A stretch of 64,000 nt of DNA from an uncultured Bacilli bacterium (GCA_934130405.1 CAKOXX010000001.1:11566-75565), one strand, 5' to 3'; counted from the stretch's first letter, positions 41,878 through 60,500 are shown. Numbers and translations are program-made. The notes: generated by a model not told the origin, from the letters alone.

Positions 41878-42108
41878 AAAACGAAAAAGACTCTAAATCC
41901 CAGTAAAGGGACGAGTCTTTTACCCGCGGTACCACCCAATTTATTATCGGTTAGATAATCGCTTATCTTGTTAACGGGAACTACCCGGCTTAGTCTACTT
42001 TGTTCTTTAAGCACTCCGAAGTGTTATTCGTAAATACTTTATCTTAACTGTTTTCACCAACCACAGCTTCTCTTATAAGTAAAGTATTCCTACTCGTCTT
42101 CATCAACG
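41878..42108 (-). promoter_or_regulatory. T-box riboswitch leader, probable Asn (AAC) specifier
   Basis: On the minus strand: Stem I with GA/K-turn (TGATGA), AGTA, AGAGA and GGTGAAA elements. Specifier loop is ...CGAAT-AAC-A-CTTCGG (codon at 42025..42023). T-box sequence AATTGGGTGGTACCGCGGG lies at 41942..41924. Terminator is AAAGACTC...GAGTCTTTTTCGTTTTC. Confidence 0.85.
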
Positions 42109-42223
42109 TTTTCTAATAAATTTTACAATGATATTTTATAATTTGTCAATTATTTATATAAATTTTTTGAAAAATTTATTATTTTAGTTTTTACAATTTG
42201 TAGCTAATTATACATGTCATATG

Positions 42224-42484
42224 TTAGTTTTTATTATTAGAAATTTCTTCTAGTTCAATAATAGAAAGTCCTGTATACGTAGAAATTTTATCTAGACTTT
42301 CATTGTTACTTAACATCAGCTTAGCTATTTCTAGTTTTGTTTCTGTTTTTCCAATAATAACACCATTATCAACGCCTTCTGAATAAGCAGAATTTCGACA
42401 TTTTTCTTCTACCTTCTCAGCGTTATACCAAGCATTAAATTCATCATTTAGTTTCAATTTCTCAATCTCATCCATTATGACCAA
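42224..42484 (-). pseudogene. Stand-alone duplicate of the C-terminal ~85 aa of the upstream Rpn-like gene
   Basis: VIMDEIEKLKLNDEFNAWYNAEKVEEKCRNSAYSEG ... ELEEISNNKN matches residues ~190-283 of the 283-aa protein. Confidence 0.5.
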
Positions 42485-42511: not shown

Positions 42512-43363
42512 TTAATTTTTATTGTTAGAAATCTCTTCTAGTTCATTAAGAGTAAGTCCAGTTGCATTTATAATTGTATCCTTGTCTATATTCAATGTTA
42601 GTAAATTCTTAACTATTTCTAACTGTTTATGCTTTTCTCCAATAGTAACACCATTATCAGCGCCTTTTGTATAGCCTTCTGAATAGCCCTCAGAATAAGC
42701 AGAATTTCGACATTTCTCTTCCACTTTCTCAGCATTATACCAAGCATTAAATTCATCATTAAGTTTCAATTTCTCAATCTCATCCATTATAACCAGTCCT
42801 TTCTTACTATTACCAGTTATCTTCTTTAACTCCTCATCAGTTTGTGCTGTTAACATTGATAATAGCATTTCGTCTTCGTTAGCTCCAGTATAACAAATGT
42901 CTTTGTAATTTACTAGGTATACATCATAAATTTTGATACCATTTTTTACTAAATTATATTTTCTATTCATTAATTCATACTCTAAAACGGTATCCTCATG
43001 CTCAAACTTATCATTATTTAAACTAATTTGAATTACTTCTTTGGTAGTATATTTTTCACCTTGTTCTAATCTGCTACCGGCTAGACGAAAAGCATAAGTA
43101 AGATTCTTTACTGTCGTATAATTCTCCATCGATTTATTGATTTCAACATTAACAATAATATCTCCTTCTTCTAGTAATAAGTCTAGACGATAATCTTTTC
43201 TTTTGTTACCGCTATTTAACTCATTATCAATAATCTTATAATTAGATAAATCAATCCCAATTATATGACTAAATAACTCAAGATAGATATTTCTTGTCCT
43301 TTCTTCTTTCATGAGATATTTCATAGTTGTATCTGATAAGATACTAATAAAATTATTATTCAT
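42512..43363 (-). CDS. Rpn-family / PD-(D/E)XK nuclease-family transposase-like protein
   Basis: N-terminal pattern ...KYLM...DYRLDLLLEEGDIIVNVEINK resembles PDDEXK_2 'putative transposase' proteins. Confidence 0.6.
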   Translation of the reverse strand: MNNNFISILSDTTMKYLMKEERTRNIYLELFSHIIGIDLSNYKIIDNELNSGNKRKDYRLDLLLEEGDIIVNVEINKSMENYTTVKNLTYAFRLAGSRLEQGEKYTTKEVIQISLNNDKFEHEDTVLEYELMNRKYNLVKNGIKIYDVYLVNYKDICYTGANEDEMLLSMLTAQTDEELKKITGNSKKGLVIMDEIEKLKLNDEFNAWYNAEKVEEKCRNSAYSEGYSEGYTKGADNGVTIGEKHKQLEIVKNLLTLNIDKDTIINATGLTLNELEEISNNKN

Positions 43364-43580: not shown

Positions 43581-44756
43581 TCAAGAAATATCAATTACAT
43601 CATAATAACTAGTCTTACCAGTATAGTTTACATCACTAATAGGAGTTTTAACTCCACTTTCACTATATTCTATATAATCAATTAAATGCTTATCACACCA
43701 CTCTTTACTTGGTTCATTACCTTCTCCAAACATTAAAGTTAAATCTATAATCATATAATCTTTAAAAGTAAACTCTGCCCAATCATATGATTCTATGTAA
43801 AAATGGTCATTTTCACTATTAGAAACGACAATTCCAGTATATATTCCTGTTGCATTAGGACTATAAATGAATTGAGTTTTTGGCCAATATTCTATTCCGT
43901 CTATTACTGTTTTGTGTGCAAATTCAAGTATTTTTTCCAAATTATGTCCCAACTTTTCAACTATAGATAATATATTAACATTATAATAATAATTGTGCCC
44001 AACACTTTTCATACTAGAAGCTGTCATCGCTATAGAATTACCCAAATAAGTAAGTCCATCAGTTGATAAAGTATAAGAGTCATCAGAATTCACTATTAAT
44101 TTTGCATATGTGCCTTTCCTAACAACTGCTATATTATTTTTTAATACATAATATTTTCTACATTCTCCATCTACGTAATAATTTCCTCCTGCATCTTGAC
44201 ACTTTTTATTTAAACTTTCTTCATTAGTTGATGCTCCTTCTATTCTAAGTTTTGCTTTAAAGACTTTATTTTCTTCTTCAGCTGTCATATCGCTTGAAAA
44301 CCATAATCTTAATTTATAGTTAATAGTTTGTCCACTATTAATTATTCCACTTTCTAGTTTTTGATTTCCTGTTAATGACTTAGCAACATTATTAGAACTA
44401 TCTCTTTCCAAACTATAATGAACATATTTCTGATCAATTCTAACATCACCTTCATCTAGTGGTTGATTATCTAAATAGATTGTATATGATGATGCTACTT
44501 TACCATTATTAGTTAATTTAAATGAATAGTAATTATTTAAATTAACACCTTCACTATCTGATAATGGTCCATCTGCTGATACTGTTATCGCATTACCATC
44601 TGATTCATCTAATACAAGTGATAAACTTCCAACTTTCAGAACACTATCTTTAGTTGCAAAGAAACTAGTTTGCAAAAATGCATATGATATTCCTAAAATA
44701 ATAAATATCAATATTACTAATAATATAACTAAAAATATATTTTGTCCCTTTTTCAT
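43581..44756 (-). CDS. SipW/TasA-type signal, TasA-like N-domain protein with a unique C-terminal domain (391 aa)
   Basis: N-terminus KKGQNIFLVILLVILIFIILGISYAFLQTS...VLKVGSLSLVLDES...FKLTNNGKVAS resembles the TasA/CalY signal plus first beta-strands (GGTWAAFND...GTLDLS...FENNGSL). Confidence 0.6.
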   Translation of the reverse strand: MKKGQNIFLVILLVILIFIILGISYAFLQTSFFATKDSVLKVGSLSLVLDESDGNAITVSADGPLSDSEGVNLNNYYSFKLTNNGKVASSYTIYLDNQPLDEGDVRIDQKYVHYSLERDSSNNVAKSLTGNQKLESGIINSGQTINYKLRLWFSSDMTAEEENKVFKAKLRIEGASTNEESLNKKCQDAGGNYYVDGECRKYYVLKNNIAVVRKGTYAKLIVNSDDSYTLSTDGLTYLGNSIAMTASSMKSVGHNYYYNVNILSIVEKLGHNLEKILEFAHKTVIDGIEYWPKTQFIYSPNATGIYTGIVVSNSENDHFYIESYDWAEFTFKDYMIIDLTLMFGEGNEPSKEWCDKHLIDYIEYSESGVKTPISDVNYTGKTSYYDVIDIS

Positions 44757-44787
44757 TTTTTACCTCTTTCTAATATTCAAACAGCAC

Positions 44788-44819
44788 AAAAAAACAGAAT
44801 AAGCTTTTTCCTATTCCAT
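44788..44819 (-). terminator. Leader terminator-like hairpin 1
   Basis: Minus strand ATGGAATAGG-aaaaag-CTTATTCTGT (with G-U pairs) followed by T7, about 30 nt upstream of the gene start. Confidence 0.5.
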
Positions 44820-44850
44820 TACTTTTACACTATTAAAGAAAGCAGGTTTA

Positions 44851-44940
44851 TTACTTAATAAGTACCCCCCCCCAAGTTAATTTTAAGTTAACTTTTCTAG
44901 ACTTAAAAAGTGAGCAACTATTTTTAAAACAACTTTTCAT
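44851..44940 (-). CDS. Leader uORF 1 (29 aa) containing the G9 tract
   Basis: AGGTGA lies 6 nt before the ATG at 44940. Translation: MKSCFKNSCSLFKSRKVNLKLTWGGVLIK*. Confidence 0.5.
   Translation of the reverse strand: MKSCFKNSCSLFKSRKVNLKLTWGGVLIK
44865..44873 (-). repeat. Homopolymeric tract, C9 on plus strand (G9 in the transcript)
   Basis: Counted directly: agta-ccccccccc-aagtt. Confidence 0.95.
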
Positions 44941-45014
44941 AATTACTCACCTACTTTCTTTACTTTTATAGTTTATCACAGTTATTTTTGTATCTCAATA
45001 TATTTATTGAAATA

Positions 45015-46652
45015 CTATCCAATGGTAACAGTTCCTTTTCCTCCCAACTTATCTTCTAACCAAGCTTTAGTAGTTGCATCCTTAGTAATAATATTTATAT
45101 CTGATGCTACTAACGTAAATGTATTATCATAATTTGAAACAGATGTAAATACAGCTTTTCTTAAATCCAACCTTTTCAAACTTTTACACCAATTAAAAGT
45201 ATGAAACATATCAGTTACATTTTCTGTATTAAAACTACTAAGATTTAATTCTTGCAGATTAATATTAAAAGCAAACATATCACTCATTGTAGTAACTTTA
45301 CTTGTATCAAAACTACTTAAATCTAATTCAGTTAAAGAACCATAACTAGAAGTACCAAGATTTGTATCCCACATATTAAACATTGATGACATATCTGTTA
45401 CTTTTGATGTATCAAAACTAGATAAATTGATTGAGAACAATTTTTTACAATTACAAAACATCCCACCCATATTAGTTACATTACTAGTATTAAAATTACT
45501 CAAGTCTAGTGTTGTTAAATTCTTATCTCCGTTAAACATATGAAACATATCTGTTACTTTTGAAGTATTAAGATTGTCAATATTTAATGTCTGTAAACTC
45601 GTATTGTATGCAAACATATCTCGCATTATTGTCACGTTTGAGGTATCAAAACTACTTAAGTCTAATAAAGTTAAGCTACCAGTACTAGCAGCATCATCCG
45701 TTTTATTCCACATATTAAACATTCCATACATATTTGTAACTTTAGACGTATCAAAGTTACTTAAATCGATATTTAATAAACTTTTACAATTACTAAACAT
45801 TTGTGACATATCTGTAACCTGCGAGGTATTTAACAAAGTTAAATTTTCTATTGTTTTTAGTTCAGTAAAATAGTTAAATAGGTAACTAGAATTACTATTA
45901 GCAAATATTTCACCATTACTTTGGATATATAAAGTATTGGTACTATCATCGTTAGATACTATTTTACCAATAACACTATTATTATCATTTGCTGATAAGT
46001 CATAACTCTTAGTAGTGTTTTCTATATCATTTATTTTATCTTGAAATACTATCTTAGTAACTGTTTGTTTTTCTTCATCGATAAGTTTAAGAGATGATGC
46101 CATAGTATTAATATTTTGGCTAGCTTCTATTCTAAGTTTTGCTTTAAATACTTTATTTTCTTCTTCAGCTGTCATATCACTTGAAAACCATAATCTTAGT
46201 TTATAGTTGATAGTTTGTTTACTATTTATTATTCCACTTTCTAGTTTTTGCTCTCCAGTTAAAGACTTAGCAACATTATTAGAATCATCTCTTTCTAAAC
46301 TATAATGGACATATTCTTGGTCAATTCTGACATCACCTTCATCTAATGGTTGATTATCTAAATAGATTGTATATGATGATGCTACTTTTCCATTATTAGT
46401 TAATTTAAATGAATAGTAATCATTTAAATTAACACCTTCACTATCTGACAATGGTCCATCTGCTGATACTGTTATCGCATTACCATCTGACTCATCTAAT
46501 ACAAGTGCTAAACTACCTACTTTTAAAACATTATCATTACTTGCAAAGAAACTTGTTTGTAAAAATGCATATGATATTCCTAGAATAATAAATATCAAGA
46601 TTATAAGTAATATAATTAAAAATATATTTTGTTTATTAATCTTAGATTTCAT
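45015..46652 (-). CDS. TasA-like N-domain fused to BspA-type (DUF285) leucine-rich repeats (545 aa)
   Basis: The N-terminal ~180 aa are nearly identical to the 391-aa protein. The C-terminal part repeats LDLSxFDTSxVTxMxxMFxxCxxL, the DUF285/BspA LRR pattern. Confidence 0.7.
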   Translation of the reverse strand: MKSKINKQNIFLIILLIILIFIILGISYAFLQTSFFASNDNVLKVGSLALVLDESDGNAITVSADGPLSDSEGVNLNDYYSFKLTNNGKVASSYTIYLDNQPLDEGDVRIDQEYVHYSLERDDSNNVAKSLTGEQKLESGIINSKQTINYKLRLWFSSDMTAEEENKVFKAKLRIEASQNINTMASSLKLIDEEKQTVTKIVFQDKINDIENTTKSYDLSANDNNSVIGKIVSNDDSTNTLYIQSNGEIFANSNSSYLFNYFTELKTIENLTLLNTSQVTDMSQMFSNCKSLLNIDLSNFDTSKVTNMYGMFNMWNKTDDAASTGSLTLLDLSSFDTSNVTIMRDMFAYNTSLQTLNIDNLNTSKVTDMFHMFNGDKNLTTLDLSNFNTSNVTNMGGMFCNCKKLFSINLSSFDTSKVTDMSSMFNMWDTNLGTSSYGSLTELDLSSFDTSKVTTMSDMFAFNINLQELNLSSFNTENVTDMFHTFNWCKSLKRLDLRKAVFTSVSNYDNTFTLVASDINIITKDATTKAWLEDKLGGKGTVTIG

Positions 46653-46684
46653 ATTTAAATCATCTCTTTTCTCACTTGTATTAT

Positions 46685-48544
46685 TTATATCGCAAATGGA
46701 TTTAGAGCAGTTCCATCTCCCTTAATTATTTGAATATCTGCACGAAGACTTATAACTGGACGAACACTGTAGAGATTTGAGACATAACCCCAAGGATTCA
46801 GACTGCCCGAAGGAAGCACTCTCCAAACTTGTGCAACAGAGCTGTAAGACTCAAAGTTAGCCGGAGAGAGTGTCCAAAAATATTGTCCATTATATAGATA
46901 ATAATTACTGTTTGCTGTGTTATATATTCCGCCGGCCATTCCTACTTCATCTGCTGTAATAAGTGAAATTGGATAATCTAATTTAGCACTTTCATTTGAC
47001 ACTTTAAATTTATCATTATCTTGTGCACATTTTAAACTTGGTGCTTTCTTTTCATATAAACGTTCATATGTTCCATAAGTAGTAGTTGGTGGCGTTAAAT
47101 AACCATTACCCCAATTTATACTTCGATCATTACAGAATGTTTCATCTGCTAAATATGATGTATAACTTGTTAAATTGTTTTTATACCATGTATCTAGTGT
47201 ATTCTTCATTGTATTGTTTGTATTATTTGTTACTGCATCGGCATAACTATCACTGCTATAAGAAATTGGTTGGACTATCATTGTTGTATCATTTGAATAT
47301 CCTGTGATTTTATATACTACATTACAACTTGTATTTAAACAACTATATAGTTTTCCTGATACAATTTCATCCGAATTATCTTTCCAAGTTAATTGTTTGG
47401 TAGTTCCGGTTAATGTGAATTTTTTTGTTGTTTCATCAAAAGTGTATCCTGTTCCAAAGTTATATTTTGAGGTATTAGCAAACCAATTGTAACCTGTTGT
47501 TCCATTATTTTCATGTAGAGAAAACTTTTCATTATATTTATATCCGACATAAGTTGGATCCCAATATTTTTCATTAAACACTGAATTACCTATGTTTGTA
47601 GCAGTTCCTGTATCTGACGTTGTTTTTCCTGAATAAATCATTCTGATACTTCCATCTCCATTACGACGGATAATTCTCCAAGTATATCCTGCAAATGATA
47701 CATAGTTATTTTTCACTGCTCCTCTATAATAGTAGCTGTCTCCCTCATCATCCTCTGCCATGAATAAACCCTCATCGGTAGTAGCAGTTTTAGAAAAGTC
47801 TGGGGTTCCTTTGGCATTTATATTAGTCTTGGCACTTTCTACTGATATTTCATGATTGTTCATTACTAACATACAATCTGATAAAGTATTAAATCCATTA
47901 TCTTTGCAATAGGTATCTTCTACTTCTGCTACGGTATCTGAGGTTTGTCCGTAAACATTTACTTTTACTTTATATACTAATCCACCGTTATCACTTTGTG
48001 GATTATAACTTTCATCTACCCATAGTCTTAATCGATATTTGATTTCTGTATCTCCTTGTTGATTTAAATTTCCTACAAATAAACTCATCATATCTGATGG
48101 GCGACCAGTATAAACATTTCCAGTTGGGTCTTCTGAATAAGTTTTTGGTGGCATTGCTTCTTCTTCAGTACCATCGGAATTAACTTTCGTAAGATATAGT
48201 TTGATATTCTTTCCATCAAAGGTGTTTCCATTCTCTTCTTTCACTGCTATCTCATAGTTAATATCTGTATTCCCTGCTATTGATGATTTAATGGTAAAAT
48301 CAAAATATTCTCCAGAATTAAGTCTTTTCTTTCCAGTCGTATCGGTCGTCGGAAGAGCATTACTCATAGATATAATATTAGTACTTTCTGTATAATTCAT
48401 CGTTATTGCTCCAGTAGTTATGGTATTCAACTTTTGACCTATTCCTGAATAGTTAAATGCTGCATAACTGATACCAATAACAGCAATTAGTAAGATAAAA
48501 GTTGTTCCGATAGTTAATATATTTTTAAACTTTTGTTTATTCAT
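46685..48544 (-). CDS. SipW/TasA-type signal surface protein (619 aa)
   Basis: GISYAAFNYSG...ITTGAITMNY closely resembles TasA GGTWAAFND...ASGTLDLS. The C-terminal end ...VRPVISLRADIQIIKGDGTALNPFAI is shared with the 503- and 495-aa paralogs. Confidence 0.65.
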   Translation of the reverse strand: MNKQKFKNILTIGTTFILLIAVIGISYAAFNYSGIGQKLNTITTGAITMNYTESTNIISMSNALPTTDTTGKKRLNSGEYFDFTIKSSIAGNTDINYEIAVKEENGNTFDGKNIKLYLTKVNSDGTEEEAMPPKTYSEDPTGNVYTGRPSDMMSLFVGNLNQQGDTEIKYRLRLWVDESYNPQSDNGGLVYKVKVNVYGQTSDTVAEVEDTYCKDNGFNTLSDCMLVMNNHEISVESAKTNINAKGTPDFSKTATTDEGLFMAEDDEGDSYYYRGAVKNNYVSFAGYTWRIIRRNGDGSIRMIYSGKTTSDTGTATNIGNSVFNEKYWDPTYVGYKYNEKFSLHENNGTTGYNWFANTSKYNFGTGYTFDETTKKFTLTGTTKQLTWKDNSDEIVSGKLYSCLNTSCNVVYKITGYSNDTTMIVQPISYSSDSYADAVTNNTNNTMKNTLDTWYKNNLTSYTSYLADETFCNDRSINWGNGYLTPPTTTYGTYERLYEKKAPSLKCAQDNDKFKVSNESAKLDYPISLITADEVGMAGGIYNTANSNYYLYNGQYFWTLSPANFESYSSVAQVWRVLPSGSLNPWGYVSNLYSVRPVISLRADIQIIKGDGTALNPFAI

Positions 48545-48575
48545 AAAGACTTATTCCTTTCATTTTGGTATACAC

Positions 48576-48618
48576 AAAAAAGATAGATTTATATTATCAG
48601 TGATATTAATCTATCTTT
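48576..48618 (-). terminator. Leader terminator-like hairpin 2
   Basis: Minus strand AAAGATAGATT-(18-nt loop)-AATCTATCTTT followed by TTTTGTG. Confidence 0.5.
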
Positions 48619-48654
48619 ATTCCACGATAAAAGAAAGTAAGTCTTTTTCTTAAA

Positions 48655-48711
48655 TTAGTAAGTACCCCCCCCCCACGTTAATTTCTGGTTAACTTGAGTC
48701 AATCGATACAT
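48655..48711 (-). CDS. Leader uORF 2 (18 aa) containing the G10 tract
   Basis: AGGTGA lies 5 nt before the ATG at 48711. Translation: MYRLTQVNQKLTWGGGTY*. Confidence 0.5.
   Translation of the reverse strand: MYRLTQVNQKLTWGGGTY
48665..48674 (-). repeat. Homopolymeric tract, C10 on plus strand (G10 in the transcript)
   Basis: Counted directly: agta-cccccccccc-acgtt. Confidence 0.95.
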
Positions 48712-48794
48712 ACTAATCACCTACTTCCTATTTTTTATTATCAGTATTCTTGACATCTTAATAATATCATAATCTTTGAAATTTTACAATTAAT

Positions 48795-57111: not shown

Positions 57112-58623
57112 TTATTCTGCTAAAATGAATGGATCAGTTGATGAACCTGTTCCAGAGGTTATATTTATTGTTGACTTTAGATAGACGACTGGACGTTCCT
57201 CAAGAGCAGCATAGGCATAAGTATTGTGAACAGCTCCATAAGCATAAACATCGAAAACATAAGCAGAATCAGTAGCAAACGAGCTCATTGTCCATTGTAT
57301 TTTTGATGATTTATAAAGCCAGTCATTATCTCTACAATTAATATAGCTACTATCATCCCAACTATATAATTCTACTGTCATACAACTCATTCTATTTGTA
57401 CTACTTCCGCCACTTGTTGCATATCCATAGTCACTTGGGTACATTAATCCTACTTTTCCTATCCAATTGGTACTGCGTCCACTATACACTGCTGTTCCTC
57501 TTTCATTTTTATAAAAATCTGATGTTGATAATCCATTTGTTGAACTAAAATAATCTGCAGGACTACCTAGATACCACTTTGCATCTCCTATCATTAGTTT
57601 TGCTGTATCTGTTAGACCAGTAGAAGTAAAATTACATGATGTTGTACCATTATATTGTCCATAGTAACAGGTCCCACTCTTTCTATTCCAATATAAACTA
57701 CCTCCATAAGTTTCACTTTCATGTCCTGGATTTAGTAAATAGTTTAGTCTTGCTTCTGGCCAGCTATTCTTTCCCCAATGATTTTCTGCTCCAGTTGATA
57801 AATCTTTATTATCCCATGAGTAAGCCCCTATTGATTCATTTCTTATTATCTTTAGTCTCTTTTCTTTTTTTCCTGTTCCATCATCGACATCAAATACTCC
57901 GATTATTCGCCATAATTCATCACTAAATTTAACATAATTATTTGGATTTGCTCCGATATAGCGATAATCAGTGGTTACTTCTAACTGTTCAGTTTCTTCA
58001 TGGGAAAATGTCCACATTTGATTTTTTTGATCATCCGTTGCTGTATTATAGTCTAAATCTTCTGGATTAGCATTTGCTACCAAAGTTTCTGTTGCTGGTG
58101 GATTACTTAATAATAAGAATACTGTTGTTCCACTTGGTAATGTTAAGTTAGAATTATTTAAGCCCATTGAGAAACCTATTTTAATTTGCTTGCCAGTTGC
58201 TCCCTTAATTTTTATCTTATAAGTTAATGTCTTTCCAGCTTCTACTGATACTCCTTCAACCGTTGGAATAGTTGGGCTATCAGATGTATAACCTATCTCA
58301 ATTGAACTATCTGATAGATTGTAGTAATAGATTGAATTTTTTACTGTTCTATCGCTTGTATTAGTTACTGTTAAAGTAATAGTATCATTATCTGTTGATG
58401 GTGTATAAGTAATTACGCCAGTTCCATTAATTGTTACGGAGTTACTTCCTATCGCTACTGTTCCATTTAAAGTACCTGTTACTACGCTATATTGCTGTAC
58501 TCCTTGAACAGTAAACCACGCATAAGAAAAGTATCCCATCAGCATTAAGCCACTTACTCCAAATAAAATAAACATATAACTTGTTGATATTTTTGTATCC
58601 AATAATTTCTTAAATATTTTCAT
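57112..58623 (-). CDS. SipW/TasA-type signal surface protein (503 aa)
   Basis: N-terminus ...LMLMGYFSYAWFTVQG...VVTGTLNGTV. C-terminus ERPVVYLKSTINITSGTGSSTDPFILAE. Paralog of the 495-aa and 619-aa proteins. Confidence 0.65.
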   Translation of the reverse strand: MKIFKKLLDTKISTSYMFILFGVSGLMLMGYFSYAWFTVQGVQQYSVVTGTLNGTVAIGSNSVTINGTGVITYTPSTDNDTITLTVTNTSDRTVKNSIYYYNLSDSSIEIGYTSDSPTIPTVEGVSVEAGKTLTYKIKIKGATGKQIKIGFSMGLNNSNLTLPSGTTVFLLLSNPPATETLVANANPEDLDYNTATDDQKNQMWTFSHEETEQLEVTTDYRYIGANPNNYVKFSDELWRIIGVFDVDDGTGKKEKRLKIIRNESIGAYSWDNKDLSTGAENHWGKNSWPEARLNYLLNPGHESETYGGSLYWNRKSGTCYYGQYNGTTSCNFTSTGLTDTAKLMIGDAKWYLGSPADYFSSTNGLSTSDFYKNERGTAVYSGRSTNWIGKVGLMYPSDYGYATSGGSSTNRMSCMTVELYSWDDSSYINCRDNDWLYKSSKIQWTMSSFATDSAYVFDVYAYGAVHNTYAYAALEERPVVYLKSTINITSGTGSSTDPFILAE

Positions 58624-58714: not shown

Positions 58715-58777
58715 TTATATAAGTACCCCCCCCCAAGTTAATTTCTGGTTAACTTGAGTTCCTAAGATATTTATCAT
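58715..58777 (-). CDS. Leader uORF 3 (20 aa) containing the G9 tract
   Basis: ATG at 58777. Translation: MINILGTQVNQKLTWGGVLI*. Confidence 0.5.
   Translation of the reverse strand: MINILGTQVNQKLTWGGVLI
58726..58734 (-). repeat. Homopolymeric tract, C9 on plus strand (G9 in the transcript)
   Basis: Counted directly: aagta-ccccccccc-aagtt. Confidence 0.95.
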
Positions 58778-58860: not shown

Positions 58861-60348
58861 TTATTCATCAGATAAAACATAAGGATTTGATTTTTCACCT
58901 GTTCCTGATGCTATTTTCACAGAAGATTTCAAATAAACTGTTGGTCTTGCAGTATGATTACTATAGCTATTAGCTGTACTAAGATAACTTTGTTGTACAC
59001 GAAATGTAGAATAAGAAATATCTGATCTAGAATTTATAGTCCATTGCATAGCTGATGATTTATAAAGCCAGTCATTATTATAACAATCAGAATAGTTATT
59101 CCAACTGGCAAGCGAAGTTTGTAAACATGTATTTCTATTAGTTGTACTTCCTCCACTTGTGGCATAACCATAATCAGAAGGATAAATTAGTCCTACTTTT
59201 CCTATCCAAGATGTATCTCTTCCACTAAATACAGTATTTCCCCTTTCATAAGAGTAAAAATTTGAGACTAGTCCTGTTGCACTTGTTGTCCCTCCCAAAT
59301 ACCACTTTGCATTATCTATAGCAGCCTTTGCTTCCATCGTTAAACCAGTAGATGTAAAATCACATGATGAAGTTGAATTACCACTTCCCTTGTAACAATT
59401 TCCACTCTTTCTATTCCAATATAAGCTTCCACCATAACTTTCACTTTCGTGTCCTTCATTCAATAAATAATTAAGTCTTGCATCAGTCCAGTTATTTTTA
59501 CCATTTGCACTTTCTGCACCAGTTGATGTATTCTTATTGTCCCAACTATAACTTCCGATAGCATTGTTTCTTATTATTTTTATTCTCTTTTCTACTTTAC
59601 CGGTTCCATCATCAACATCAAATACCCCAATTATTCGCCATACCTCATCATTAAATGTTACATAATTATTAGGACTGCTTCCTATATATCTATAATCAGT
59701 TAATGCCTCTGTTTGGTCTGTTTTATCATGAGAAAATTTCCACATTTGATTCTTTTGATCATCGGTTGCTGTATTGTAATCCAAATCTTCTTTATTAGCA
59801 TTTGTTATTAAGTTTTCCACTCCAGTTGGTTCTAACTTTTCAAAAGCATTGGTTCCAACTGGTAATGTCAAATTGGAATTATTTAAGCCCATTGATGAGC
59901 CTATTTTTATTTGTTTACCAGTTGCTCCTGTTATCTTTATATAGTAGGTTAGTATACCTCCTTTTTCTACTGATACTCCAGTAACTTCAGGAATAGTTGG
60001 ACTATCTACAGTATAACCAATTTTAATTGAGCTATCTGATAAATCATAGTAACAAATAGAGTTTTTTGCTGTTCTATCATTTGTGTTAGTTACTGTTAAA
60101 GTAATAGTGTCACTATCTGTCGATGGTGTATAAGTAATTACGCCAGTTCCATTAATTGTTACGGAGTTACTTCCTATCGCTACTGTTCCATTTAAAGTAC
60201 CTGTTACTACGCTATATTGCTGTACTCCTTGAACAGTAAACCACGCATAAGAAAAGTATCCCATCAGCATTAAGCCACTTACTCCAAATAAAATAAACAT
60301 ATAACTTGTTGATACTTTTGTATCAAATAACTTTCTAAATATTTTCAT
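58861..60348 (-). CDS. SipW/TasA-type signal surface protein (495 aa)
   Basis: Paralog of the 503-aa protein. Shares a 193-nt perfectly identical 5' segment (60122..60314 vs 58397..58589). Confidence 0.65.
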   Translation of the reverse strand: MKIFRKLFDTKVSTSYMFILFGVSGLMLMGYFSYAWFTVQGVQQYSVVTGTLNGTVAIGSNSVTINGTGVITYTPSTDSDTITLTVTNTNDRTAKNSICYYDLSDSSIKIGYTVDSPTIPEVTGVSVEKGGILTYYIKITGATGKQIKIGSSMGLNNSNLTLPVGTNAFEKLEPTGVENLITNANKEDLDYNTATDDQKNQMWKFSHDKTDQTEALTDYRYIGSSPNNYVTFNDEVWRIIGVFDVDDGTGKVEKRIKIIRNNAIGSYSWDNKNTSTGAESANGKNNWTDARLNYLLNEGHESESYGGSLYWNRKSGNCYKGSGNSTSSCDFTSTGLTMEAKAAIDNAKWYLGGTTSATGLVSNFYSYERGNTVFSGRDTSWIGKVGLIYPSDYGYATSGGSTTNRNTCLQTSLASWNNYSDCYNNDWLYKSSAMQWTINSRSDISYSTFRVQQSYLSTANSYSNHTARPTVYLKSSVKIASGTGEKSNPYVLSDE

Positions 60349-60437: not shown

Positions 60438-60500
60438 TTATATAAGTACCCCCCCCCAGGTTAATTTCTGGTTAACTTGAGCTTCTAAGATATTCATCAT
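60438..60500 (-). CDS. Leader uORF 4 (20 aa) containing the G9 tract
   Basis: GAGGG lies 4-7 nt before ATGATG at 60500. Translation: MMNILEAQVNQKLTWGGVLI*. Confidence 0.5.
   Translation of the reverse strand: MMNILEAQVNQKLTWGGVLI
60449..60457 (-). repeat. Homopolymeric tract, C9 on plus strand (G9 in the transcript)
   Basis: Counted directly: aagta-ccccccccc-aggtt. Confidence 0.95.

Follow-up and report, generated by a model that had tools for sequence, protein, structure and literature searches.

Three consecutive genes of an uncultured Bacilli bacterium (GCA_934130405.1) encode proteins that begin alike and end differently. They lie between positions 43581 and 48544 of the 64-kb stretch analysed here (hereafter the window), which corresponds to 11566-75565 of contig 1 in a source genome of 1.32 Mb and 28% GC. 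What is their common N-terminal module, and what does it do in front of such different C-termini? A first-pass annotation, made from the sequence alone, had proposed a TasA/camelysin-type N-terminus followed by exchangeable distal domains, as in variable adhesins, and the three open reading frames (ORFs) of 391, 545 and 619 aa were recovered on the minus strand exactly where it had placed them. The reading that we favour, with a probability of about 0.6, is that the cluster encodes secreted surface proteins, each combining a SipW-cleaved, TasA-like fibre module with swappable cargo, whose genes recombine and are switched by poly-G runs. Of this reading, we only infer that the proteins are cleaved, polymerise and adhere, and which way the switch works. 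The genome-wide expansion of the module, the sipW operon and the poly-G leaders described below go beyond the first-pass annotation.

Architecture of the three proteins

The N-termini of all three proteins are built from a basic stretch, a transmembrane (TM) helix, the motif G-I-S-Y-A and a G-(S/T/A)-(L/I) strand, and a 'TNNGKVASSY' strand is also present in the 391/545 pair. The near-identical N-domain of ~175 aa that had been noticed in this pair is 93% identical over 154 aa and stands before unrelated C-domains. The identity of ~94% between the two copies at the DNA level begins near codon 6 and breaks off abruptly at the final codon of the domain ('KLRIE'). The N-domain of the 619-aa protein is, as annotated, a more distant relative in pairwise comparison (22% identity, E=1e-3), and it falls within the same hidden Markov model (HMM) family with E=1e-82.

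The C-terminal part of the 545-aa protein matched PF03382 (DUF285; E=6.2e-44, three stretches) and the PARCEL profile TIGR02167 (E=1.1e-68, eight repeats), which bears out the DUF285/BspA repeats of the first-pass annotation. Its description of them as 'Mollicutes-style' holds as an association of domain names only: DUF285 was first named from Mycoplasma, whereas the present organism is walled, with five penicillin-binding-protein matches and four sortases. The final ~90 residues of the 619-aa protein are common to the 503- and 495-aa paralogs (hhalign probability 97.5%, E=8e-12), so the C-terminal relationship suggested for the paralogs at 57-60 kb was recovered, and this terminal module is what the 503-aa type has in common with the 619-aa type. 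The orphan C-domain of the 391-type is present in five paralogs. Given the 32 nt that separate the stop of the 619-aa gene from the start of the 545-aa gene, and the lack of a leader of its own in front of the latter, the two are probably co-transcribed. As 46 ORFs of the genome bear the module, the pattern seen in the cluster is well past chance.

The N-terminal module as a branch of the TasA/camelysin superfamily

As reference for profile-profile comparison, we used genuine, Pfam-checked Peptidase_M73 proteins from further Bacilli with small genomes, members of the same class. The reference alignment comprised nine such proteins, eight of them at or above the Pfam cut-off, and the family alignment 70 sequences. 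The reference proteins are ~190-215 aa long, are encoded beside SipW-type peptidases and carry the motif G-(G/T)-T-Y-A-(L/W)-F-S-(D/E). With hhalign, the family profile matched the Peptidase_M73 profile over the entire domain (98.6% probability, E=5e-16, 173 columns), and the match extended over the whole mature domain after signal peptides had been removed from both alignments (94.9%, E=4.2e-8, 151 columns). PF12389 also directly matched 5 of 81 multidomain members of the family, with a best E-value of 7.9e-5.

The AlphaFold2 (AF2) model of the mature N-module of the 619-aa protein is all-beta (pLDDT 84.8, pTM 0.82), with its first 12 mature residues disordered. In a Foldseek search of 350,542 PDB chains, the first-ranked match of this model was the TasA fibre determined by cryo-EM (8aur_A; E=4.4e-4, probability 1.00, TM-score 0.45), and the archaeal TasA homologue AbpA (7ueg_A) was retrieved at rank 42. 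The structural comparison proposed in the first-pass annotation thus returned TasA, at a modest TM-score, and its TasA/camelysin-type N-terminus is supported by the significant profile matches. Because the profile-profile matches, the direct PF12389 members and the fold match agree, we place the N-module, on sequence profiles and a structure model, as a divergent and so far unmodelled branch of the TasA/camelysin (Peptidase_M73) jelly-roll superfamily.

In the signal region, the family motif G-x-(S/T)-(Y/F)-A-x-(F/L) aligns with the Peptidase_M73 motif, although TIGR04088 gave no match at E≤1. Among 81 diverse members, conservation reaches at least 90% for Ala at position -1, Gly at -5 and several core residues (F, W, D, G and Y), and the combination of Ala at -1 with Ser/Thr at -3 is near-invariant over thousands of divergent members. 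The signal peptide is predicted to be of the SipW-cognate type and to be cleaved directly after the alanine of (S/T)-(Y/F)-A. The cleavage context TWA↓AFND of TasA compares with a predicted SYA↓AFNY here.

A single SipW-type peptidase and its operon

No sipW is present in the 64-kb window, as had been observed, and the suggestion to look for it elsewhere was borne out. The genome holds one SipW/archaeal-type signal peptidase I, on contig 3 (TIGR02228, 93 bits against a cut-off of 51.85), so the genomic absence of such an enzyme, named in advance as refuting the TasA interpretation, is not the case. This type I (S26B) peptidase has 269 aa and contains the motifs SPSMVP, THRV and GDAN. Its gene follows four tandem genes for stand-alone proteins of ~200-225 aa and is itself followed by the gene for a 171-aa protein and by two conserved genes for small membrane proteins (229 and 144 aa). 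The N-module of the 619-aa protein and a stand-alone subunit are full-length homologues (42% identity, E=4e-41), and the best-conserved stretch between them is formed by the first 25 mature residues, of which 16 are identical (64%). For the 391/545-type N-modules, identity to the subunits of the sipW operon is only ~25%. Since the S-Y-A motif is missing from the 171-aa protein, it may be an uncleaved membrane anchor or base subunit.

The operon is kept gene for gene in a related gut metagenome-assembled genome (MAG), 'Bacilli bacterium HGM10844'. Of 150 genomes sampled from the class, 14 belong to the same GTDB family, and nine of these carry the module, which was detected in none of the other 136. 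All nine carrier genomes encode a SipW-type peptidase, and in seven of the eight carriers other than the source genome no more than ~2 kb separates the SipW gene from a stand-alone subunit gene.

Family size and diversity of the cargo

The 46 ORFs retrieved with the module HMM occupy 5.3% of the bases of the 1.32-Mb genome. Sorted by C-terminus, 27 are of the 619-type, five of the 391-type, two carry DUF285, a few carry other C-termini and eight are stand-alone. Seven more paralogs, of the 503-aa type, have only the F-S-Y-A-W-F signal and the first strand in common with the family. Stand-alone subunits also occur in other N-subfamilies, at C1:194636, C7:35559 and C3:57973 (contig:position). 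A profile search of 1.84 billion representative public proteins, mostly yielding representatives from gut metagenomes, gave 8,848 clusters at E≤1e-3, of which 5,390 reach E≤1e-10. Each of the 150 best matches has the module at residues ~2-180, in proteins that are 175-2,835 aa long. For the proteins that were checked, public sources hold no functional name beyond 'hypothetical protein'. The organism itself is found in human gut metagenomes, among them Hadza and Nepal cohorts.

Among the 81 multidomain members, the recognisable cargo comprised LRR_5/BspA (10), DUF285 (7), bacterial surface Ig-like domains (7), DUF6273 (4), Flg_new (3) and Laminin_G_3 (2), together with F5/8-C, and occasional relatives bear Metallophos, trans-sialidase-C or 3-keto-disaccharide hydrolase domains. 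The C-domains of the 619- and 391-types had neither a Pfam match nor a PDB sequence match. For the 619-type C-domain, the AF2 model reached a pLDDT of 66.7 and Foldseek returned nothing below E=0.38. DUF6273 (PF19789) was not detected in the C-terminal parts of the 619- and 503-aa proteins, which end in V-R-P-V-I-x-L; one close homologue has a precomputed DUF6273 match, which was not reproduced at E≤0.1. The combination of modules is flexible, as one 619-type C-domain (60-85% identical) was found joined to two N-subfamilies that are ~24% identical. The notion of a constant module with exchangeable distal domains therefore holds at the scale of the family, and a natural recombinant, described below, illustrates it. 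Separately, one copy of the DUF285 gene, at contig 5:57388-58841, is split into ORFs of 365 and 116 aa; the split is probably a frameshift, and the copy may be a pseudogene.

Exchange of cargo by recombination

In ~20 public contigs, the gene that starts 32 nt behind the 619-aa gene encodes a 394-aa protein, with no DUF285 gene and no leader between the two. The first ~17 residues of this protein derive from the 545-aa protein and the remainder from the 391-aa protein (95% identical). The chimera thus stands in for the DUF285 gene, the leader and the 391-aa gene, that is, for window positions 43581-46652. A single crossover within the ~530-bp N-module repeat thus connects the two forms of the locus. 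Together with the sharp boundary of DNA homology at the edge of the N-module in the 391/545 pair, this provides direct evidence that the N-module repeat is a recombination substrate for the gain or loss of cargo. In two assemblies, a 130-bp deletion was observed in the N-module coding part of the 391-aa gene (window ~44650), which leaves an ORF of 271/276 aa.

A poly-G leader upstream of the module genes

The genome contains 20 G/C homopolymers of at least seven bases. All of them are G9 or G10, and all lie within one conserved element of ~150 nt, which matches no Rfam family. N-module genes follow fifteen of the runs at a distance of 76-126 nt, 503-type genes follow another three, and the last two runs lie at contig ends; the subunit genes of the sipW operon have no G-run. 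Every complete copy of the leader contains a Shine-Dalgarno (SD) sequence and an upstream ORF (uORF) starting with ATG, which encodes '...VN-x-KLTWGG...' over the run. Of the three frames, exactly one reads on through a conserved '(T/A)FF(N/Y)' peptide to a stop codon within the 5' arm of a hairpin, and the remaining two stop 10-20 nt past the G run. A T6-8 tract comes after the hairpin (-10 to -18.5 kcal/mol), the stem of which occurs in two versions that both pair through compensatory changes. In a sigma-70 scan, promoter-like sites with a TG motif were found upstream of the uORFs. We also considered the G-run as a promoter spacer of the Neisseria/Mycoplasma type. No sigma-70 promoter was called across the run, and this reading was dropped in favour of a uORF/attenuator because the promoter-like sites lie upstream of the SD-preceded uORF that bears the run.

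The uORF of 619-type leaders is long with G9 and short with G10, and in 391/503-type leaders the long frame requires G8 or G11; only two leaders of the source assembly are in the long-uORF state. Eight assemblies encode an identical 619-aa protein; five of them have a G9 run in the 619 leader and three a G10 run, with G10 present in both single-nucleotide polymorphism (SNP) haplotypes. Across assemblies, the 8.9-kb locus has 27 SNP columns and six indel events, two of which are G-runs. The 391 leader has G9 in 13 of 14 assemblies and G10 in one. Judging from this arrangement, the leader is probably a phase-variation attenuator and the TasA-like genes are probably phase-variable, in which case run length would set the transcription of the downstream gene.

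Among 61 genera sampled from the bacterial family, the same G9 element was detected in only two. In a genome from another genus of this family, it reads TTGAC(T/C)-T-G9-TA at C5:94, C10:19172, C21:8067 and C21:9259 (contig:position), and the 'TTGAC' variant may be a simple codon change, from V-N to V-D.

Comparison with known systems

The closest likeness is to TasA/TapA/SipW of Bacillus subtilis (tapA-sipW-tasA; PDB 5OF1, 8AUR). Both systems have a jelly-roll subunit behind a SipW-type signal, which is a predicted one in the present family, an S26B peptidase in the subunit operon and an N-terminal segment placed where it could serve as a donor strand. Unlike TasA, the present family falls below the Pfam threshold, has four tandem backbone paralogs instead of one and lacks a recognisable TapA. 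Most of its members carry a large C-terminal cargo, the 46 paralogs are dispersed in a 1.3-Mb genome and expression, which is under SinR control for TasA, is probably phase-variable here. BsaA/BsaB/BsaC with SipW in Clostridium perfringens and CalY/camelysin in the Bacillus cereus group are likewise SipW-linked TasA-family proteins that form matrix or pilus-like polymers, with several paralogs per operon (PMC7395162; PMC11580942; 10.1101/2024.02.27.582368). They differ in having single-domain subunits within one operon, and the literature that we found describes no modular cargo family or homopolymer switch for them. AbpA, one of the bundling pilins AbpA/AbpB of Pyrobaculum calidifontis (7UEG), resembles the present module in being a very divergent TasA homologue that is recognisable only by profile-profile or structural comparison, and the distal beta-domains of AbpB have been proposed as adhesins (PMC9245690). 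This system is archaeal, however, has no dedicated SipW and contains one minor multidomain partner, against dozens here.

For the leader, the nearest parallel is pil1/pil3 of Streptococcus gallolyticus, where slippage in a leader-ORF repeat in front of a terminator determines, through the reading frame, whether the ribosome arrives there (PMC3894217). As in pil1, a short leader ORF with a slippage-prone repeat is followed by a terminator. The repeat here is a G9/G10 homopolymer instead of GCAGA repeats, the element has ~20 copies per genome, it precedes a TasA-like family instead of sortase pili, and the effect on transcription is a predicted one here. Two further comparisons are analogies only. 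FimH and PapG of chaperone-usher pili also combine a polymerisation module with a binding module, without homology of usher pilins to the present family, in which the polymerisation module would be N-terminal and the cargo C-terminal. The Vlp, Vsa and vlhA families of the Mollicutes likewise comprise many paralogs in a small genome and are switched by simple repeats, whereas the organism studied here has a wall.

Proposed mechanism and alternatives

In the mechanism that we propose, the single SipW-type peptidase would remove the signal peptide after S-Y-A. Cleavage would free an N-terminal strand ('AFNYSGIGQKLN...'), which would insert into the beta-sandwich of the neighbouring subunit by the donor-strand mechanism of TasA fibres (PMC9674648; for TasA biology see also PMC10151520 and PMC9245690). 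The four stand-alone subunits of ~200 aa encoded beside sipW would form the fibre backbone, and the 171-aa member of the operon, devoid of S-Y-A, could serve as a membrane anchor. The ~40 cargo-bearing paralogs, among them the three of the cluster, would join the same or parallel fibres and display their C-terminal modules (DUF285/BspA-type leucine-rich repeats and orphan domains) for binding. Homologous recombination across the N-module coding repeat would exchange the C-terminal cargo, and one-base slips in the poly-G run would set whether the ribosome enters the terminator, switching single genes or pairs on or off. The candidate donor-strand segment is the one that is disordered in the AF2 model and also best conserved in comparison with the backbone subunits.

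A number of observations weigh against this reading. Pfam and NCBIfam scans of five window proteins returned no match of PF12389, TIGR04088 or any other model to the N-module at E≤1, so that of the HMMs proposed for checking by the first-pass annotation only PF03382 found its target. PF12389 also had no match in the six frames of the genome, and the sequence profile of the N-module gave nothing significant against PDB chains. The Foldseek match to TasA, modest as it is, has generic jelly-roll carbohydrate-binding modules close behind it and would be weak alone. The 619- and 391-type C-domains have no recognisable fold or family, which makes the term 'adhesin' a guess for them. The three window genes and the other cargo genes are dispersed and unlinked to sipW. 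The predicted long-uORF state of the 391 leader (G8/G11) was found in none of the 14 assemblies, and G-run lengths were read from consensus assemblies, in which homopolymer errors are possible. Finally, since the C-terminus of TasA forms an inter-subunit contact (PMC9674648), it might be, by analogy, that C-terminal cargo of 200-2,600 aa is untolerated in a fibre.

The last point and the dispersal of the genes lend some strength to an unlikely but serious alternative, in which the N-module is a non-polymerising stalk or anchor. The signal would then either be left uncleaved as a signal-anchor or be cleaved with release of the monomer, the jelly-roll would merely space the C-domain from the membrane or wall, and the stand-alone proteins could form a separate matrix fibre from which the cargo proteins are absent. 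It is in keeping with this alternative that cleavage and assembly of the cargo proteins are predictions and that the 391/545-type N-modules are so distant from the subunits encoded with sipW. The near-invariance of Ala at -1 and Ser/Thr at -3, by contrast, implies that cleavage by a signal peptidase is under selection. Directly past the predicted cut lies the segment that is both the best conserved (619-type against backbone) and unfolded in the AF2 model, as expected of a donor strand, and the module stands at the extreme N-terminus in every one of the 150 best matches, as a free donor strand requires. Stand-alone subunits, moreover, exist in other N-subfamilies too.

A less probable alternative is that the proteins are secreted enzymes or polymorphic effectors, in which the N-module would be a tag that they all share for export or targeting, and the orphan C-domains would be catalytic. 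The commonest cargo (the 619-type, with 27 copies) and the 391-type indeed show no recognisable binding-domain signature, and the Metallophos, trans-sialidase-C and 3-keto-disaccharide hydrolase domains of some relatives would fit such a role. The cargo that can be recognised, however, consists mostly of binding or repeat modules, no catalytic motif or toxin family was detected, and an enzymatic cargo would also be compatible with delivery by fibre display. A type IV or archaeal-type pilin, which would keep its hydrophobic helix in the filament core after prepilin-peptidase cleavage, deserves hardly any weight: the only PDB sequence-profile matches were indeed archaeal pilins (6nav, 8tib, 6w8x and 8fjs; E=0.08-1.1), but they are non-significant and reflect the TM segment. 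A class III signal motif (G/A before a hydrophobic start, or G-F-T-L-x-E) is missing, and the small residues that are conserved lie past the helix. The homology to the TasA family is significant even without the signal peptide, and the peptidase encoded in the operon belongs to type I (S26B) and is not a prepilin peptidase.

Positions of features and neighbouring genes

Table 1. Positions of the module genes, their paralogs and their leaders (window coordinates unless a contig is given; aa, residues of the protein; G9 and G10, runs of nine and ten G)
Feature	Position	Strand	Remarks
391-aa protein	43581-44756	minus	TasA-like N-module 44217-44756; orphan 211-aa C-domain 43581-44216
391-aa gene leader	44757-44998	minus	promoter-like site 44970-44998
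391 leader, SD and uORF	44851-44940	minus	G9 run 44865-44873
391 leader, hairpin and T-run	~44788-44819	minus	
545-aa protein	45015-46652	minus	TasA-like N-module 46106-46652; DUF285/PARCEL (BspA-like) repeats
619-aa protein, signal/TM segment	residues 1-28	minus	gene 46685-48544; segment ends in S-Y-A
619-aa protein, TasA-like N-module	47930-48460	minus	~aa 29-205
619-aa protein, orphan C-domain	46688-47929	minus	aa 206-619; last ~90 aa are the terminal module common with the 503-aa type
619-aa gene leader	48545-48789	minus	promoter-like site 48761-48789; conserved block CTTACTTTCTTT
619 leader, uORF	48655-48711	minus	preceded by SD; encodes MYRLTQVNQKLTWGGGTY, then stop
619 leader, G10 run	48665-48674	minus	
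619 leader, hairpin and T-run	~48576-48617	minus	
503-aa paralog	57112-58623	minus	F-S-Y-A-W-F signal motif and first strand as in the cluster; different Ig-like N-terminal part
503-aa paralog leader, G9 run	58726-58734	minus	
495-aa paralog	58861-60348	minus	same type as the 503-aa paralog
495-aa paralog leader, G9 run	60449-60457	minus	
171-aa protein	contig 3:74805-75320	minus	just downstream of sipW; family member (hhalign 97.4%); without the S-Y-A motif

Adjoining the cluster, window positions 42512-43363 hold a 283-aa ORF without a Pfam match, next to which an 86-aa ORF (42224-42484) repeats a C-terminal stretch of the 283-aa ORF ('VIMDEIEKLKLNDEFNAWYNAEKVEEKCRNSAYSEG'). A T-box leader (Rfam RF00230, 64 bits, with the match clipped at the search boundary) was found on the minus strand at 42000-42115, upstream of gatC-gatA-gatB. 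On the other side of the cluster, a 143-aa ORF at 48795-49226 matches SirA, the sporulation inhibitor of replication (PF10747, E=1.7e-10), and yabP/yabQ-like genes lie near sipW. Considering these two observations, this small-genome gut bacterium may be able to sporulate.

Implications

TasA-type fibres are known as single-domain biofilm scaffolds from Bacillus, Clostridium and a few archaea. What is new here is a very large, unannotated and Pfam-invisible branch of the TasA superfamily, in which the fibre module is fused to adhesin-like cargo. In a small-genome lineage of human-gut Bacilli, this branch has grown to ~5% of the genome and is accompanied by a putative simple-repeat switch and by recombinational exchange of cargo, and the family probably lets the cell vary its surface display. 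The family alignments are ready to serve as the definition of a new Pfam/NCBIfam model. If the cargo subunits polymerise, they would represent a new, sortase-free Gram-positive route to variable adhesive fibres, would give a function to thousands of 'hypothetical proteins' and would help to account for surface variation in uncultured, host-dependent gut bacteria.

Carried further, and put forward here only tentatively, the proposal would be that TasA-type donor-strand fibres serve gut Bacilli with reduced genomes as a modular scaffold for display. The fibre would be built by one SipW and a small set of constitutive backbone subunits, ~40 cargo subunits would co-polymerise into it, each gene or pair with its own poly-G switch, and reshuffling across the N-module would add to a stochastically varied, combinatorial adhesive fibre. 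If true, such a modular display fibre would be the Gram-positive counterpart of both the tip adhesins of usher pili and the variable surface antigens of mycoplasmas.

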